From contig JAWAHN010000002.1 in assembly GCA_038889235.1 (NCBI GenBank), positions 344,356 through 376,355 of the forward strand: 32,000 nt of DNA, in the 5' to 3' direction. Origin of the DNA: Candidatus Jordarchaeales archaeon. GTDB lineage: Archaea; Asgardarchaeota; Jordiarchaeia; Jordiarchaeales; Freyrarchaeaceae. Positions 297-8,529 of this stretch are shown here, in pieces (positions within the stretch are counted from its first letter, which is position 1; every line of letters starts with the position of its first letter). The notes below the pieces were generated by a model that worked only from the letters and a program-made list of their open reading frames with translations, was not told the DNA's origin and made no database searches. Made by a program: the position numbers and the translations under genes.

Positions 297-1715
297 GTGG
301 GATTGAATTTGCTTGTTCTTGAAGGCGAAGACGGGAGGAAAGTAAAGGTCTTCGTCGTCGACTTCCACACACACGTGGGAAAGGAAAAGGTCCTAGACGC
401 CGTAGGGGAGGCCTTCCGCTCCAATACACCAAAACAAACAATAGACTTCTACCATAGGCTCCAATTCGAGTTAAAGGCGTGCATGAACTCCTCCCCCTCA
501 AGTTACCGCTACAAGCTCGTCGAGCCGCTCACAGAGCCCCCAAAAGCGTTGAAGTCTTTCTATGACTCTTTTGGTGGCATGTGGGGGTGGACGGTAGACC
601 AGTTTGTTGCCTTCCCCTTCAACGACTACAGAGCCTACTCCACGAAGCCGGGCTTCATGATACCCAACGACATGGTCTTAAAGCGCTCGCTCACACTGCC
701 ATTCTCCCCTCGGATGCTTGGCTTCGTCAGGGTGGATCCGCACGACGGCGAGGGAGCCGTAAGAGAAGTTGAGAGGTGCGCTGCCGCGGGGGCGAGGGGG
801 CTAAAACTCCACCCGATATCACAAGGCTTCCTCGACGAGGTGAACTCTAAGGAGGTGCAGGATGTTGTCATCGCAGCTATCAACAACGGGATGCCCGTTA
901 TCTTTGACTGCCGGTACTACGCGACAGCGGAGGACATTTATGAGCTCGTGCAGTCCATTCGAGGTGCAGTTAAAAGAGAGCGGTTTGCCGTAGTGCTTGC
1001 TCACTCGAGCATGGAGTACACGAAGAAAGGCCTCTACGATATACTAGGCGACCCGAACATATACGGTGATACGTCAGGTGTGAGGGGTGACGACGTGCAG
1101 GTCTTCCTCAAAATGCTTAGAAACAACTTGGGCGATGAGTGGTCTCGCAAAATTCTCTTTGGCACAGACTTCAACTACTTCACTATCCCGCAAGCGGTCG
1201 ACTTTCTCTCTTATCTTTTCACCTGGGACTTTTACGATGAGCTCGACGCAAAGCTGAAAGACGTCGAACGTATACTTGCGGGGAATGCTCTCTCGATGAT
1301 CAAGCCTCACATCGAGTCCCACGGGCACACTTGGGCGATGAAGTTTAGAGGGGAGGCCGGAGAGGCTTTCTCGAGGAACCTGCTCCATAGAGCAGGCTAT
1401 GCTGCGTCGAAGAAGACGGTTGAGACATTAACATATGACCCAGTAGTTCAAGGAAGTGGGGTGGTGGACGCAGAAAGCTTCGTGCTATCACTCCGCCGTG
1501 CCGGAGGCGGGGGTTCGTCGCTGATCGTTAGGAGGGGAGCTAAAAAAACTTTAGTAGCACTTCTAAGCGTTTGTGATGTGGACGCAAGCTTAAGAGTGAG
1601 AAAAACATCCGGAGACTACACAAAAGTAATCCGGGGTGTGGTGTGGGGTAGTGTAGAGGTGGACAACGTCGGCGAAGCTGAGGAGCTGGCGGACAAATTG
1701 ATTCGAGGTTTTTGA
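297..1715 (+). CDS. Amidohydrolase_2-family metal-dependent TIM-barrel hydrolase with an extra C-terminal region of about 130 aa
   Basis: DFHTH metal motif, GFVRVDP, GLKLHP, VVLAH, YGDTSG and ILFGTDF motifs in the expected barrel order. Confidence 0.85.
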   Translation: MGLNLLVLEGEDGRKVKVFVVDFHTHVGKEKVLDAVGEAFRSNTPKQTIDFYHRLQFELKACMNSSPSSYRYKLVEPLTEPPKALKSFYDSFGGMWGWTVDQFVAFPFNDYRAYSTKPGFMIPNDMVLKRSLTLPFSPRMLGFVRVDPHDGEGAVREVERCAAAGARGLKLHPISQGFLDEVNSKEVQDVVIAAINNGMPVIFDCRYYATAEDIYELVQSIRGAVKRERFAVVLAHSSMEYTKKGLYDILGDPNIYGDTSGVRGDDVQVFLKMLRNNLGDEWSRKILFGTDFNYFTIPQAVDFLSYLFTWDFYDELDAKLKDVERILAGNALSMIKPHIESHGHTWAMKFRGEAGEAFSRNLLHRAGYAASKKTVETLTYDPVVQGSGVVDAESFVLSLRRAGGGGSSLIVRRGAKKTLVALLSVCDVDASLRVRKTSGDYTKVIRGVVWGSVEVDNVGEAEELADKLIRGF

Positions 1716-1804
1716 ATCTTGGAGAGTATAGCTGAATCATTTTTCCAGAATTTTTATACGGTGAAATCTCTCTTTAGAGAATCTCTGGAGAGGCGTGTTA
1801 ATAG

Positions 1805-3142
1805 GTGATTCAATTGTCCTTGAAACTTGAGGTTGTTAATGCTGGCGCTGCTGATGGGCGCGCATTTATGAACCCGAGCGACATGAAGCAGCTTGGAATA
1901 GACGACTTTGACATAGTCGTTTTCATTAACGAGTACGAGGACTGGGGTGCTGTCCAAGTTATATCTAAGAGCGACTGCCCTGAAGGCTACATAATGATTG
2001 ACGAAGACGTGCTTGACTCGGCGAACGTTTCAGAAGGAGACGTAGTTACTGTCAAGAAGAAAAAGGCTAGAGGAGGGATAAAATACGTTCAACTGGGTGT
2101 TGAACCAATGGAGGGGCAACCTACAGAGGAGGTCGTCGTGTGGGTTGCGGATCACGTCAGTGATCTTGCCAGGATACTCAAGAAGAGGCCCATATACAGG
2201 AACCTCGAGGTCAGCTGGCGGGATGCTGAGTGTGGTTACATAAAGCTGAGGGTTCAGTCAACTAAGCCCGACCTCTCGGGTGAAGAGGTTGGAATAATCG
2301 ATCCGACGGGGCACGAGGTCACGTTCGAAATAGTTCCAGCCCTCGACATGACGTTTAACGCGGTGCTCATGATAGACGTCTCCGGATCCATGCAGAAGAA
2401 GGATATGAGGCTTAAAAACGTCGACGGAGCAATAGAAGGGCTGAAGAAGGGGATGCGTGAGACACAGCGCTTGAAGGAGTTCCTTGTAGGAATAGAGGAA
2501 GGTGGGGTAGTTAGCAGGATAAAGGCAGCCGCCCTCGCAACGCTGCTCTACTTGTCCTTGAAGATAGGGAGAGGGTGGGGTGAAAACGTTCAAGTCATAA
2601 CGTTCGCCGAACAAGTTGAACCGTTAACCATAACGGACAAGCAGGGAAGGCAGACGACAGTCATAAAGTGTACTGGGGAGAGTAAGGCTCTGGGGCTTGA
2701 AGCTATAGGAGAGTACATACTTGAAAAGTGCCAGGAGGGAAGTGGGTTAACGTTCATGAGCGGCGCATTAAAGAAGGCCGCCGAGTTAGCTGAACTGTTC
2801 CCTCCTAACCCAAAGACCGGAAAACCTTATCCTGTGATGTTCGTCCTGCTCTCCGACGGGTATCCAAACACCGGGGACGAGGAAGCAGGAATCCCGGTCA
2901 ACCCGATACCTATAGTGCGCGACTACTTCTCCCAGAAAACAGATTGGGTACTCTACACTATAGGAATTGGAGAAGCGGACATGGAGCTCATGCGCAGACT
3001 GGCAGAGATAGGGAGGGGTGAGGCATTCAAAGCTGACGACTTCGGCGATCTGGCACGGTGGTACGACATGTTGGCGCAGCGCTTCGCGATAACGGTAAAA
3101 ACGACCCCTTCACAGTTTGCTGCAGAAGTCTCTGAAACATAA
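1805..3142 (+). CDS. Cdc48/VAT-type N-domain (double-psi barrel plus second subdomain) fused to a von Willebrand factor A domain; no ATPase
   Basis: The N-terminus (LEVVNAGAADGRAFMNPSDMKQLGI...GYIMIDEDVLDSANVSEGDVVTVKK, then LKKRPIY...KLRVQSTKP) follows the CDC48_N/CDC48_2 pattern. The C-terminus has MIDAS DVSGS (2375-2389), GLT, LLSDG and YTIGIG. No Walker A. Start may be TTG 1814 after AGGTGA. Confidence 0.8.
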   Translation: MIQLSLKLEVVNAGAADGRAFMNPSDMKQLGIDDFDIVVFINEYEDWGAVQVISKSDCPEGYIMIDEDVLDSANVSEGDVVTVKKKKARGGIKYVQLGVEPMEGQPTEEVVVWVADHVSDLARILKKRPIYRNLEVSWRDAECGYIKLRVQSTKPDLSGEEVGIIDPTGHEVTFEIVPALDMTFNAVLMIDVSGSMQKKDMRLKNVDGAIEGLKKGMRETQRLKEFLVGIEEGGVVSRIKAAALATLLYLSLKIGRGWGENVQVITFAEQVEPLTITDKQGRQTTVIKCTGESKALGLEAIGEYILEKCQEGSGLTFMSGALKKAAELAELFPPNPKTGKPYPVMFVLLSDGYPNTGDEEAGIPVNPIPIVRDYFSQKTDWVLYTIGIGEADMELMRRLAEIGRGEAFKADDFGDLARWYDMLAQRFAITVKTTPSQFAAEVSET

Positions 3143-3240
3143 AGACGCTGCCTGTAGCGCACAGGGCCTAAAGCGACTTCGAAGCTGGGAGAACCCCCGC
3201 ACCCTCCAAAATTTTTAGTACGCAAATGCAGTTAACGGGG

Positions 3241-3261
3241 AACCTCACCCTTGGTGAGGTT
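3241..3261. terminator. Perfect 9-bp stem hairpin between convergent genes
   Basis: AACCTCACC-CTT-GGTGAGGTT in the 3143-3291 gap. The terminator role is inferred. Confidence 0.35.
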
Positions 3262-3291
3262 AAAGCACTCCATCCTAAACTTGGCTCAAAA

Positions 3292-6200
3292 CTAGTTCGC
3301 CGAATCAAACACTTTTACGAGCTTCACTTCATGCCTGGGTGTCTGCACTACTTCAGATGGTAGTAGTTTATCTTTCACGTAGACTAATGCTTCCAGCGTG
3401 ACTATTGTGGTGTTAGGTACCTGCGGGGGCTTCCACGCCACACTTACCGTTTTCTCCTGCTGCTTAATCTCTCCGCTCCAAACTTTCCGTGTTTTCGTCA
3501 GAACCCTCGCAGTTAAGACAACCTTAATCGGTTGCGCCACTTTCTTCTTAACGTTGAATGCCAGTTTACTCTCTTTTCTCTCCTCCAGCATGGACGGGAG
3601 CTTGGTGAATGCGACCTTCACGAGAGGGCTGGTTGGCGGGCTTACCATGAACATTGGAGAAGTCTCCGTTAGCACGAAGGAGCCTTCCTGCGTTTTGAAC
3701 TGTAGCATGGCTTGCAAGTACGTCTTCTTTCCCGCAAGCCACGGTGGAATCTCAATTTTCCCGTGAACCTTCACTCCCTTCCTAGGTTTAAGCTCAAGGC
3801 TTAACTTCTCCTCAACCTCAACTTCCCCCTGAAGTGTAAAAAGGCGGACCACCCCTCTAGCTTTTACCTGCCGCTCAGCGGCATTCTCTGCTTCGAACTC
3901 ATACGCGACCTGACCACCAGCTTGCACATCCCTCACTCTAAGTGTTACCTCACTGATGGTAATCGGGGGACGAGGAGTTACATTAACCTCGACTTCTTCA
4001 CTATAAACCCTAGCTCCGTCTGCCTCCAAACTTATCTTTAACTTGTGCCTTCCCTTCTCCTCCCAGGCTTTGACTGTCAGTGGCAAAACATGCATCCCTT
4101 CGTCCACGACATACTCCTTCGACGTCACGGATCCGGCCGTCAACGAAACACTTAGCTTTACCGGCTTCATAACCCCTTCAACTCTCACTTTGAGCTTCAC
4201 CACAATGGTCGACGACGCTGCAACATTCTTCGGGCACTCGATGCCGGAAACCTTGACCGCCTTCTTAGGCGGAAGAGCGGTAACATGAACGACCCCCGTC
4301 TTACACTCCGCTAGAACCTCCTCACCATGAACTACACGGCACACGAAGGCGAAGCTCCCCTCCGTAACATCCTTGCCAACCTTAACCTTGCAGGACAGCC
4401 TCTTTGACTGCTTCACAACAAGCTCCCTATAATCCATTAGCCTCCTCTCCCTTCCCTCCAGGAAGATCTCAGCAAAGAAGGGGCCCGCAACGTCTGGGTT
4501 CAAGTTCACAACTTCGAAAACCGCCTTGCAAGTCTCACCCCACTTAACCACGTGCTTGGAAACACTACCGGAAACACTCAACCGAGGTCTAAGGGAAATA
4601 TGTGAGACGTCGATGGCTCTTGAAACATGGGCCGCAGCGACTGCTGTTTTGCTCTCTGCACGCTCCACCCTTCTACGTGAAGAGGGCTGAATACGAGTGA
4701 GCTTTGACTGCTTTGCTGTCTTCACAGCCCTCTCTGCCTTAGTTCTATCCTGAACGACAGGAGTTTTAGGCTTCGCAACGCTTACCTGTGCTTCTCGCCT
4801 AACTTGTGCCGTTGGCGGGGTAAGCCTGGTGACTACTATAACCTTTGGCTTAGCCTCTGCCTCTCTAATGGTTACAGCCTCTTTCTTCTTGGCCTCCGCT
4901 GTCTGTGCGACAAGTTCCTGTCTTGTTGCGGTGGTCTTTGTTTCCACTGCTGCTACACTTGGCCTTTCAACTCTCACCACCGGGGTTTTATATTCTGCCA
5001 CTGTTTCCCCCATGTAGAGTACTTGAAACCTAAGTGTGTACTCCCCCTCCTCGCCCGACGGAATAGGCACACTCACTACCGCAGGGATGTTTATCTTTTT
5101 CGTCAGAATAGGGGATATCTTTCCACCCTTTTCCGCTGTAACAACTAGTTTGTACTCCCCTCTAAACTCGGGAGGCCTACTCTCGACCTTCACCTTAAGC
5201 TCCCTAGTCTCCCCCACTCTGACGGTTTTAGGCGTGGTCCCAACAGTCACCTTCACGTTAGGTATCGCGGTGGCTTTAAACGTCCTAGTTTCTGCTTCGC
5301 AGCCCCCCACTCCCTCACCTTTCAAGGCAAACTTCAGACGGCACGTCTTAGTTCCATGGAACGCTTTGAGAGGGATTTTGAGGGGGAGCTGCGAGCTCGT
5401 GACAATAACAGTCTTACCTTTCCTCAAAAATATCTTCTTCACAGCCGTCTGGATCGTCTCGCTTTCATCGGCGAAGGTCACCTTCGCCACGAGCGTTGCC
5501 TGCGCATCCCCATCGCTGCTCACTTCAACAGTGAATGGTATGATCTCCTCTGCAACCACCATGGACGCTGTCGTCTCTGCTTTCATCGACACCTTGACCG
5601 CTAGCTTTGGTTTCTCTACAGATTCCACCCTTGCCTCTCCGAACGCTTCGATCAACGGGTCCCCTGGACCCGTGCAATACTTCCTAGTGATCTCCATCAA
5701 GCTGCGGGCTACGACCCCCATGTCTCCCCCCGAGCTACTGTAGAGGTATAGCAGGTAGTCTGCAGGGGAGCACGGGGGTTCAAGCTTATCTGAACCGTAG
5801 ACGGATACAAGGAAAGGCTTGAGGTAGTCTTGGAACCCAAGCTCATCTACTTCCTCCTCAACGTACTTTAGCATCCCCCGGACGGCTTCGAAAAGCTTAG
5901 AGTAGGGCTCTCCTGAAGGAGAGGTGTTGTAGAATGATGCCTCCTTCTCCTTGAGCCCCTTGTCCGGGAAAAACTTCCCCATTAAACCATAGAGTATCGC
6001 TTTTTCCCTGTTCTCAACTACCACGCTCGAGCTGACCCTTGGAACCCTAACTCCTTTACTTGCTAGTTTGACCGCTTTGAGCGCCAGCGCCTGTAGGAGA
6101 GCTACAAGCGCCAACCTTCTTGCTGCACTGAACTGTGAGTCGAAGACTCTGACCTCTATTGTTCCATAGTCTGTGAAGGGGAAAACGTCAACGTACCTGT

Positions 6201-6993
6201 CATCCGGCGGCTCCCTCATAACTACAGAGTCAAAAGCTCTCCTATCCAGTGACTCTAAGTAGGGTATGTAGTGGTCTTTGTCTGCGGGCCCCATCTGGCT
6301 CGTGTTGTACTTAAGCCTTATGTCTCGAACACAGTCCTTTCCGATTATGAAGACTTTACCCTTCCTCTGAACTTTGACAGTCCCAGTAACCCCTTCCCTG
6401 ATGAATGGAGAGTTCACCGTGAGAGCTATCAGGTGAGGGACAAATGCGCGTATCATGTTGTACACAGCTGGTGCTTCCTCTTTGCTCACTCCCACGTGGT
6501 AGTGGTCTCCAAAGGTTACCCCGCTCCTATACTCTTCCTCGAAGGGGTTGAAACCTATAGAAATCAAGTGGTATCCTGAAGGGAGGGAGTCGTATGCCAC
6601 GCTATAGAGCGTTTTAATCCACCATTCAAGCTCCTCCATAAATCTGCACGGAGGAGTTACGAGCTCCAAGATCCAGGTTATCTGGCTCACGTTCGGGTCT
6701 GGTCCGAGAACGTCGACGTCGGCAGCTCCACGAGGGGTCCTATAGGAGACCACAACGTAAGGTAGTCTCTTCCCCCTTCTCTCTTTCTCACTAAAAGAGA
6801 CGTTAATGACGTTATCTGAAACCTCAGCTGGCGCGTCCGCGACAGCCTTCTGCAAGTTTTTCAAAGCGTTCCCCATAAGGTGCTTCCACACTTGGATTAG
6901 GGTTGCCCCACGTAGCAGTCTACCCTTTGAGTCGACCACTTGAACCTCCATCTCTATTCCTTGAGTGAAGGGGAGCTTGTGCATTTCAACCAC
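3292..6993 (-). CDS. GCS2/YbdK-like carboxylate-amine ligase (N-terminal about 450 aa) fused to about six beta-sandwich (Ig-like) domains and a low-complexity linker
   Basis: GCS2 motifs in order: GIEMEVQVVD, ILELVTPP, GDHYHVG, HLIALTVNSPF and DVFPFTDYGTIEVRVFD. The C-terminal 770 aa shows repeated Val-rich alternating beta-strand blocks of about 100-110 aa. No signal peptide or TM helix is visible. Confidence 0.8.
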   Translation of the reverse strand: MVEMHKLPFTQGIEMEVQVVDSKGRLLRGATLIQVWKHLMGNALKNLQKAVADAPAEVSDNVINVSFSEKERRGKRLPYVVVSYRTPRGAADVDVLGPDPNVSQITWILELVTPPCRFMEELEWWIKTLYSVAYDSLPSGYHLISIGFNPFEEEYRSGVTFGDHYHVGVSKEEAPAVYNMIRAFVPHLIALTVNSPFIREGVTGTVKVQRKGKVFIIGKDCVRDIRLKYNTSQMGPADKDHYIPYLESLDRRAFDSVVMREPPDDRYVDVFPFTDYGTIEVRVFDSQFSAARRLALVALLQALALKAVKLASKGVRVPRVSSSVVVENREKAILYGLMGKFFPDKGLKEKEASFYNTSPSGEPYSKLFEAVRGMLKYVEEEVDELGFQDYLKPFLVSVYGSDKLEPPCSPADYLLYLYSSSGGDMGVVARSLMEITRKYCTGPGDPLIEAFGEARVESVEKPKLAVKVSMKAETTASMVVAEEIIPFTVEVSSDGDAQATLVAKVTFADESETIQTAVKKIFLRKGKTVIVTSSQLPLKIPLKAFHGTKTCRLKFALKGEGVGGCEAETRTFKATAIPNVKVTVGTTPKTVRVGETRELKVKVESRPPEFRGEYKLVVTAEKGGKISPILTKKINIPAVVSVPIPSGEEGEYTLRFQVLYMGETVAEYKTPVVRVERPSVAAVETKTTATRQELVAQTAEAKKKEAVTIREAEAKPKVIVVTRLTPPTAQVRREAQVSVAKPKTPVVQDRTKAERAVKTAKQSKLTRIQPSSRRRVERAESKTAVAAAHVSRAIDVSHISLRPRLSVSGSVSKHVVKWGETCKAVFEVVNLNPDVAGPFFAEIFLEGRERRLMDYRELVVKQSKRLSCKVKVGKDVTEGSFAFVCRVVHGEEVLAECKTGVVHVTALPPKKAVKVSGIECPKNVAASSTIVVKLKVRVEGVMKPVKLSVSLTAGSVTSKEYVVDEGMHVLPLTVKAWEEKGRHKLKISLEADGARVYSEEVEVNVTPRPPITISEVTLRVRDVQAGGQVAYEFEAENAAERQVKARGVVRLFTLQGEVEVEEKLSLELKPRKGVKVHGKIEIPPWLAGKKTYLQAMLQFKTQEGSFVLTETSPMFMVSPPTSPLVKVAFTKLPSMLEERKESKLAFNVKKKVAQPIKVVLTARVLTKTRKVWSGEIKQQEKTVSVAWKPPQVPNTTIVTLEALVYVKDKLLPSEVVQTPRHEVKLVKVFDSAN

Positions 6994-7002
6994 TCGCCAA
7001 AC

Positions 7003-8529
7003 CTAGATGTCAACAGCTGGTTTTAAATAATGGTCGATGTAGCTCTTCGCCTCATCCGCCTCCCTCCTCCTCAACACTCCTGAATCAACCAGCACGCTTA
7101 TCCCTCGCGAGAAAAGGGAGGCAGCCTCGGGGTTCAGGAGGTAGTTGAACTTCTTCAGTCCAGAGGCTATAGCACCCCACACTTCTTCTCTGAGGCTCAA
7201 GCTAACTATAGACTCAAGCTGGGAAGAGACTGCAACGCCGCCAGCTTCAACAACTATAGGGGGAATTACGTCGACAACTTCTTTTCCCCCAGCAAGCCTG
7301 TAGGCGAAGAAGGGCACGTACACAGTCGCCGGAAGCTTCCCGGGGAAAGTTGAAGCGGGAACGAGGAACGAAGAGTTTGCCTCGACACGAGACCTAGCTT
7401 GGGAAAGCCACTCCCTGGAGATCTCCTCGTACTCCCTCTTCTGCCTGACCGCCTCGAGGAAGACCTGCTTCACCCGCCTGACTTCCTGGTTTACATCCTC
7501 AATCTCTCTTTCCAACTCTTTAAGTATTCTTTCCTCCTCTTTCTGAAACTCTTTTTCAGCCTTTTTCTTGAGCCGCTCTTTCTCCCTTTCAAAGCGCTCC
7601 CTGCGGCCGAGGTAATCCAAGTACTCCCTCTCAACTCTGGAGAACTCCTCAATGGCTTCTTCGAGCGAATCTATAACTGCCCTTATCCTCTCCAAGGTTA
7701 ACTCGGGCTCCCCTCCAGACGTAGCCTCTGAAATAGCCTTCTCCAACTTCTCAATATACCGCGAGAGGGGAAAAGTGCTCGGCGGGCTCTCAGAAAACTT
7801 CAACGCCTCTATTCTTTTAACTTCCATCTCAAACTTAGCCCTCTCCTCCTCCACTCTCCCCTGAGCCTTCTCCTTAATTCTCTGCTTCTCCTCCTCAGCT
7901 TTCCTCTCGGCCTCCTCAATTTCTTCCCTGTAGCGGGCCAGCGTTTCATCGATAATTCTCAAGTTCTCCCTGAAAACCTCGGCAAAGTGGTTCACGTTCT
8001 CTTTTGTGAGCACGGTAAAAGACGACAAAGTCTCGCTTGCAGCCTTTAGGGAGATCCTTTCTGGGACCAACTCGTCAGGCTTGACATTCCACCGCTCCAC
8101 ATGTTGAAGTCTCTCGGTGAGCGCGGTGAGCGCCGGGCCGCTGACGAGTCCCGGCACGTTGGCTTTGAGGGGCTTAACCTGTCGTTTGAGAGACGAAACC
8201 CTCAGCTTTAGCGCCTCAGTAAATGATTCCAAACGAGCCTCGTCAAAGTCTTTGAAGGATGAAAGGTGAGGCGAGTAGAAAACTGAGCCTGAAAGTGAAG
8301 CTGTCGCCTCAACGGCCACCATGCTCTCCCCATCAACTGGGATAAGGTGTATCGGGAAAAAGAACTTCGAAACAGACACGAGTTCGCCGCCGGAAGATTT
8401 CTTCCAAATTAAGAAGAATGCCAGCGCAACCTCGACAGCGTCAGCGTACTTCGAGGGGAAGAACTCCCTTCTCTGAAGCACAAACGGCACTGAAAATATT
8501 TCAACCAATCCCAGGCGGCCTCCATGCAT
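7003..8529 (-). CDS. Uncharacterised protein: N- and C-terminal alpha/beta segments flanking two E/K/R-rich coiled-coil stretches
   Basis: 508-aa ORF with coiled-coil blocks near aa 190-245 and 290-385. Its stop lies 9 nt upstream of the ligase start, suggesting an operon. Confidence 0.75.
   Translation of the reverse strand: MHGGRLGLVEIFSVPFVLQRREFFPSKYADAVEVALAFFLIWKKSSGGELVSVSKFFFPIHLIPVDGESMVAVEATASLSGSVFYSPHLSSFKDFDEARLESFTEALKLRVSSLKRQVKPLKANVPGLVSGPALTALTERLQHVERWNVKPDELVPERISLKAASETLSSFTVLTKENVNHFAEVFRENLRIIDETLARYREEIEEAERKAEEEKQRIKEKAQGRVEEERAKFEMEVKRIEALKFSESPPSTFPLSRYIEKLEKAISEATSGGEPELTLERIRAVIDSLEEAIEEFSRVEREYLDYLGRRERFEREKERLKKKAEKEFQKEEERILKELEREIEDVNQEVRRVKQVFLEAVRQKREYEEISREWLSQARSRVEANSSFLVPASTFPGKLPATVYVPFFAYRLAGGKEVVDVIPPIVVEAGGVAVSSQLESIVSLSLREEVWGAIASGLKKFNYLLNPEAASLFSRGISVLVDSGVLRRREADEAKSYIDHYLKPAVDI

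Follow-up and report, generated by a model that had tools for sequence, protein, structure and literature searches.

We examined a gene that encodes a Cdc48-type N domain followed by a von Willebrand factor A (vWA) domain. It lies in a window of 32,000 nucleotides (nt) taken from contig JAWAHN010000002.1 (positions 344,356 to 376,355) of assembly GCA_038889235.1, Candidatus Jordarchaeales archaeon, and its source is an uncultured hot-spring Asgard archaeon. An amidohydrolase gene stands just upstream on the same strand, and the gene of a giant ligase converges on it from the opposite strand. We refer to the Cdc48N-vWA protein as V, to the upstream amidohydrolase as A and to the giant ligase as G, and residues of V are numbered from the GTG codon at position 1805. 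The coding sequence and domains of V, together with its two partner genes, are placed in the window as follows.

297..1715, + strand: partner gene A, an Amidohydro_2-type metal hydrolase by Pfam, 472 amino acids (aa), 90 nt upstream of V
1803..1809, + strand: Shine-Dalgarno-like AGGTGAT, read from the sequence, 4 nt upstream of TTG 1814
1814..3142, + strand: probable V coding sequence, TTG start at 1814, 442 aa
1817..2062, + strand: N-domain lobe 1, a double-psi beta-barrel, residues about 5-86
2084..2338, + strand: N-domain lobe 2, a CDC48_2-like subdomain, residues about 94-178
2345..3112, + strand: vWA domain, residues 181-436
2375..2389, + strand: DVSGS motif of the metal-ion-dependent adhesion site (MIDAS), with D191, S193 and S195
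2750-2752 and 2855-2857, + strand: remaining MIDAS residues, T316 and D351 respectively
2393..2515, + strand: family-specific helical insert between the MIDAS loop and helix 1, residues 197-237
3113..3139, + strand: short C-terminal tail of low confidence, residues 437-445, with a predicted local distance difference test score (pLDDT) below 50
3292..6993, - strand: partner gene G, with an N-terminal YbdK/GCS2 carboxylate-amine ligase domain, 1233 aa, convergent with V

The longest open reading frame of V begins at GTG 1805 on the forward strand, ends at 3142 and would yield 445 aa. The product is probably 442 aa, because the orthologues begin at the position of TTG 1814 and GTG 1805 falls within AGGTGAT, a putative ribosome-binding site. 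Specifically, the close orthologues P0002 and P0003 (98% and 86% identical) both start with MS[LI]KLEV at the TTG position.

Domains and conservation of V

The initial annotation of this stretch, made from the letters alone, had matched the N-terminal region of V to both subdomains of the Cdc48/VAT N domain. Pfam CDC48_N confirms the first lobe at residues 16-85 (35.7 bits against a cut-off of 35.1), and this family is matched by all 34 aligned V relatives with a best E of 9.1e-11. CDC48_2 is not detectable in V by sequence. We place the second lobe on structural grounds, because a model of the N domain alone superposes on solved N domains across both lobes; the region, for which the annotation had left room for a different fold, thus models as an N domain. 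The AlphaFold2 models have a mean pLDDT of 87.7 for full-length V and 90.8 for the N domain alone.

A vWA domain with an intact MIDAS follows directly after the N domain, as had been read from the sequence, and Pfam VWA/VWA_2 cover residues 187-416. We aligned V relatives in two sets, A1 and the wider A2, which takes in distant paralogues. In A1 all five MIDAS residues (D191, S193, S195, T316 and D351) are invariant, and in A2 D191, S193 and D351 remain so while S195 and T316 are at least 90% conserved. The helical insertion that the annotation had seen past the MIDAS is recovered as an insert of about 40 residues, modelled as two short helices (206-216 and 221-227); four of its residues (D200, E211, G212 and L213) are invariant, as is R238 directly after it. 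Pfam finds no AAA family in V, which also has no GxxxxGK[ST] motif or P-loop, in line with the earlier statement that Walker motifs and an AAA ATPase are absent. V is non-enzymatic, and it has no membrane-like stretch. The vWA domain ends 9 residues before the C-terminus, and the tail in this genome (AAEVSET) is short and poorly conserved, as it is in most families. Heimdall-type orthologues carry a poly-acidic tail of 45-60 residues that often ends in Y (L022:9337-10833, L033:5919-7397).

In a sediment metatranscriptome, X1, a contig of 1986 nt that is 96.6% identical to the window spans positions 1804-3786, running from the V gene through the region between the two convergent genes into the 3' end of G, with single-base insertions at 3207 and 3287. 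Among the 39 printed differences within the V coding sequence, 32 fall at third codon positions. Because 35 of the 39 are synonymous, the comparison is good evidence that V is under purifying selection. The contig begins at 1804, one base ahead of the V open reading frame, although contigs cannot reveal a transcript start. Its word depth is 13.9, compared with 1-7 for pieces over neighbouring genes, and it gives a hint that V is expressed.

Partner genes, distribution and fused paralogues

Gene linkage was sampled at 27 V loci from nine Asgard families. A adjoins V in 15 of these, mostly just upstream on the same strand, and at three further loci it is no more than about 6 kb away; G adjoins V in 8. 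The distribution of the three genes also agrees. V is present in 100 of 201 sampled genomes of the phylum (59 of the 86 that are high-quality), and A and G are each present in 99 of the same 201. All three are confined to the same 9 of 27 families and absent from the other 18; kin genomes within families inflate the agreement by genome, and the match is complete at the family level. Loki-type MAGs are among the carriers of the module (L004). The metal ligands of A (D22, H24, H26, K170, H172, D204, H236 and D291) are invariant in 19 orthologues, and since this set is invariant A is probably an active enzyme. The YbdK/GCS2 ligase domain of G occupies its first ~450 residues.

The trio is duplicated in this genome. 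A second full set with the same convergent arrangement of A and V against G lies at C2:255681-262289 and encodes an A of 504 aa, a V of 496 aa and a G of 1180 aa. A 248-aa protein gene follows this set, and after it (to C2:264180) comes a 385-aa coiled-coil protein with weak ATG17-like matches. A third full-length V paralogue, 450 aa long and 36% identical, is found at C2:442834-444186, flanked by a HAD hydrolase gene and by a radical-SAM gene with an HMPTM-type zinc ribbon.

Some paralogues, ~850-890 aa long, are fusions in which an A-like half is linked to one resembling N-vWA. The fusion of this genome (848 aa, C2:269413-271959) keeps only one of seven hydrolase metal ligands and has four of five MIDAS residues replaced. 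All eight fusions examined, this one and seven of about 870-890 aa from other families, have diverged at both sites, with at most two of seven metal ligands and at most two of five MIDAS residues kept, counts that are subject to alignment accuracy at low identity. The existence of an A-V fusion speaks for joint action of A and V as a unit, and the joint decay of the hydrolase metal site and the MIDAS argues that both sites serve one task. At the loci of family f7 the fusion gene adjoins an active A-V pair.

We also predicted the A+V complex, using our own alignments. The interaction prediction score from aligned errors (ipSAE) had a median of 0.55 (runs of 0.80, 0.55 and 0.34), where values up to 0.60 count as a weak pass, and the best of three controls scored 0.00. 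Calibration put 58 of 80 solved complexes at or above the pass mark, compared with 2 of 110 mismatches. The A+V runs share at least 53% of their contacts, with a partner pLDDT of at least 78. The predicted complex gives mild support for binding between A and V, and it counts for that much because the prior from fusion and adjacency is already fair.

A further hint comes from the Heimdall-type family f27. Here 28-33 of the last 60 residues of V are D/E, and around position 505 of G the K/R count reaches 26-28 per 60 residues (L032:8033-11275, L033:14727-17996), each being the extreme of the set. The acidic tail and the basic arm may be complementary in charge and reflect a V-G contact in this lineage.

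A word-indexed search returned 86 V relatives, and an exhaustive phmmer search over 1.84 billion cluster representatives returned 102. Those with names are nearly all Asgard (Freyr/Jord, Loki/Promethearchaeota, Sigyn, Hod, Heimdall, Thor, Odin, Hel and Asgardarchaeia), the nearest being metagenome-assembled genomes (MAGs) of Freyr/Jordarchaeia. In GTDB species genomes, full-length relatives occur among the matches listed in Asgard-type MAGs only, and bacterial matches cover the vWA part alone. Clusters P0022, P0033 and P0037 and locus L035 hold typical V members, 48-56% identical to the V of the window, that are filed under Bathyarchaeota/Bathyarchaeia and Zixibacteria MAGs; these labels are probably binning or naming errors. 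In the tree, the V of the window falls in a clade with 100/100 support together with the sister family f2, a Loki MAG, the Heimdall-type f27 and the Hod family f21, while the two other V paralogues of this genome branch elsewhere. The order of groups looks like vertical descent. Further genes of the window, for Spt5 (NGN-KOW), an archaeal-type D-aminoacyl-tRNA deacylase and FtsZ, fit an archaeon. One more gene stands just upstream of G.

7003..8529, - strand: coiled-coil-like protein, 508 aa

This protein matches no Pfam family. Among the loci compared its only homologue is in L026, of the sister family f2, and it is thus retained in close relatives only.

Proposed function of V and its alternatives

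What we observe is a constant architecture with an invariant MIDAS, linkage to A and G, a shared distribution, duplication of the whole trio and a fused, dead paralogue. We prefer to read V as the non-catalytic subunit that does the binding in an Asgard-specific amide write/erase module with A and G, a proposal that we credit about as much as we doubt it. Cdc48-type N domains are protein and peptide-motif binding modules, and the MIDAS metal of integrin I domains and of Rea1 binds an Asp or Glu carboxylate of the ligand. A carboxylate-amine ligase uses up a carboxylate, and an amidohydrolase restores one. In the proposed mechanism V would bind A and hold a ligand of protein size at two points, by the N domain and through the MIDAS metal, to which a carboxylate of the ligand would bind; ligase G would consume this carboxylate and hydrolase A would regenerate it. 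G would be the writer, and V would either present the substrate to the eraser A or read the unmodified state.

Several points weigh against this proposal. Everything said here of the function of V is inferred, from its physical contact with A to the kind of ligand and the logic of writing and erasing. The complex score is a weak pass, and the acid/base covariation of V and G is seen in a single lineage. The match in distribution may reflect few events of gain and loss. Tight coupling of A, V and G is not universal, because a gap of 8-23 kb separates A from V in family f9, where G is also without its Ig-like part, and the third V paralogue of this genome has neither A nor G beside it. Since contigs of an RNA library do not prove transcription, the X1 contig goes no further than a hint of expression.

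The same evidence can be read in other ways. V might be a maturation factor that delivers or holds metal for the active site of A by way of its MIDAS, as CoxE, NorD, CbbO and ViaA do, with the N domain docking in place of a MoxR ATPase. The metal ligands of A are complete and invariant, A is the nearest and most frequent neighbour of V, and the joint loss of MIDAS and metal ligands in the fusions suits such a factor as well as it suits a binding subunit. Weak VWA_CoxE matches occur in 16 of 34 V family members (best E 0.0032), but their scores are under the family cut-off. Moreover, known vWA maturation factors work with a MoxR-type AAA ATPase, none of which is present among the scanned window neighbours or in the duplicate set, and metal delivery leaves no role for G, which has the distribution of V. 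We consider this explanation unlikely. It is slightly less probable still that V itself is modified, with G adding residues to, or attaching, the acidic C-terminal tail or another carboxylate of V and A removing them, comparable to the tyrosination/glutamylation of tubulin tails or to Pup. The tails are disordered and acidic, the 45-60 residue D/E tails of the Heimdall type often end in Y, and the ligase of that same lineage has the most basic arm. However, the tail is short and poorly conserved here and in most families, V has no small conserved terminal motif like the GGQ/GGE of Pup, and the parts of V that are conserved are the MIDAS and the N domain.

The initial annotation had suggested a stand-alone adaptor that delivers tagged substrates to an unfoldase. 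Its core, a non-catalytic adaptor role, survives as the best reading of V, whereas delivery to Cdc48 or PAN finds no support. The window neighbours that were scanned include no AAA gene, and the conserved partners are A and G. An adaptor handing tagged substrates to Cdc48, PAN or the proteasome has analogues in Ufd1 and Rpn10, yet no proteasome or ubiquitin-like gene, and again no AAA gene, occurs among those neighbours, in the duplicate set or among partners recurring across loci. In addition, Pfam finds no UIM, SHP or UBX family in V, the Cdc48-like gene of this genome is on another contig (C1:1046025), and an N domain derived from Cdc48 would be expected to bind the ligands of the Cdc48 N domain and not Cdc48 itself. 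We regard this version of the adaptor as the least probable of the alternatives. A further possibility concerns DEPDC5/Iml1, the scaffold of the GATOR1/SEACIT nutrient-sensing complex with GTPase-activating protein activity. V could be an archaeal relative of its N-terminal half, that is, a scaffold docking Roadblock/longin proteins and small GTPases, with ligase and hydrolase as add-ons; both this role and the corresponding descent, in which the Asgard Cdc48N-vWA family would be the archaeal stock of the NTD-SABA core of DEPDC5/Iml1, appear improbable to us. Among PDB matches of V, only DEPDC5/Iml1 appears to share the order of an N domain directly before a vWA-like domain. Families f9 and f23 have a V form of about 720-760 aa with three N-domain profile matches (L016:7830-15975, L017, L018, L019), and in all four loci of this ~720-aa form a Roadblock/LC7 gene lies immediately upstream. 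NPRL2-like longins have also been reported in Asgard archaea, as DEPDC5 has not. The likeness is at the level of the fold only. The template modelling score normalised by the query is 0.27-0.30, p97 N-D1 entries score equally (E 1e-10) and N-only p97 entries nearly as well, and DEPDC5 is more distant from the N domain of V than are Cdc48, PEX1 and NSF. V also lacks the SHEN, DEP and C-terminal domains. Pfam IML1 (PF12257) has no match in this genome at E up to 10 and none in the 34 V family members; sequence and profile searches of the PDB with V return vWA and double-psi beta-barrel proteins only and no DEPDC5/Iml1; ESM Atlas searches by features and by shape return only vWA and Cdc48-type clusters; and a profile search among proteins of 869-2480 aa, which is weak evidence, finds generic vWA proteins only. 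Small GTPase genes lie within 20 kb of V in 9 of the 27 loci, which we do not count as enrichment because Asgard genomes are rich in small GTPases. The Gtr1/RagA-like gene of this genome (81 bits) is on another contig (C1:752406-752969). If the descent were true, GATOR1 would have a third component older than eukaryotes, in addition to NPRL-like longins and Rag-like GTPases, and this component would have begun in an amide write/erase system; that would matter for how the machinery of nutrient sensing upstream of TORC1 originated.

Two observations on gene neighbourhoods are recorded here. A small GTPase gene stands beside a Roadblock gene at C2:246961-247983, ~8 kb upstream of the second module copy. 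Downstream in L016 are genes for a MraZ/AbrB-like protein of 133 aa, a homologue of actin and a protein of 869 aa that matches CHAT weakly.

Comparison with known systems

The initial annotation did not recognise the fusion as a named family, and we likewise found no name and no published description of it; our literature search returned no paper on an Asgard Cdc48N-vWA architecture, on the A-V-G module or on a link between DEPDC5 and Asgard archaea. The component domains are known, but not their fusion, the conserved insert or the partnership with A and G. Compared with the N domains of Cdc48/p97/VAT, NSF/Sec18, PEX1 and the UT3 domain of Ufd1, V is without an AAA ring, its CDC48_2 lobe escapes sequence detection and a vWA domain follows directly. 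V thus has a vWA domain where the AAA module of a CDC48-family ATPase would follow the N domain, and unlike Ufd1 it is without a C-terminal SHP/Npl4-binding region. Compared with MIDAS-type vWA adaptors (p44/Ssl1 of TFIIH, ITIH, BatB, ArnB, Rpn10 and the MoxR partners CoxE, NorD and ViaA), V has two additions, a Cdc48-type N domain in front and, after DxSxS, the conserved helical insert of 40 residues, and it is without a zinc ribbon, a UIM or a MoxR partner.

Asgard archaea are the closest known relatives of eukaryotes, and because of this, families that are found only in Asgard archaea and are kept across their classes are candidate early pieces of eukaryote-type regulation. Both the write/erase and the DEPDC5 readings are testable with recombinant proteins, and if the former is true the module would modify proteins or peptides through a type of system that has no described example in archaea so far. 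A functional analogue of the whole module among known systems is pupylation (PafA, the deamidase/depupylase Dop, Pup and Mpa), where, too, a protein-binding component and an amide hydrolase accompany a ligase that is ATP-dependent and belongs to the carboxylate-amine ligase group. Unlike in pupylation, no small tag protein or unfoldase is linked to the A-V-G module, and the hydrolase of the module has the TIM-barrel amidohydrolase fold and is not a paralogue of the ligase. In the V family, the adaptor-binding head of Cdc48 is reused without the motor, is coupled to a metal-dependent binding domain and is co-inherited with an ATP-dependent amide ligase and a hydrolase.
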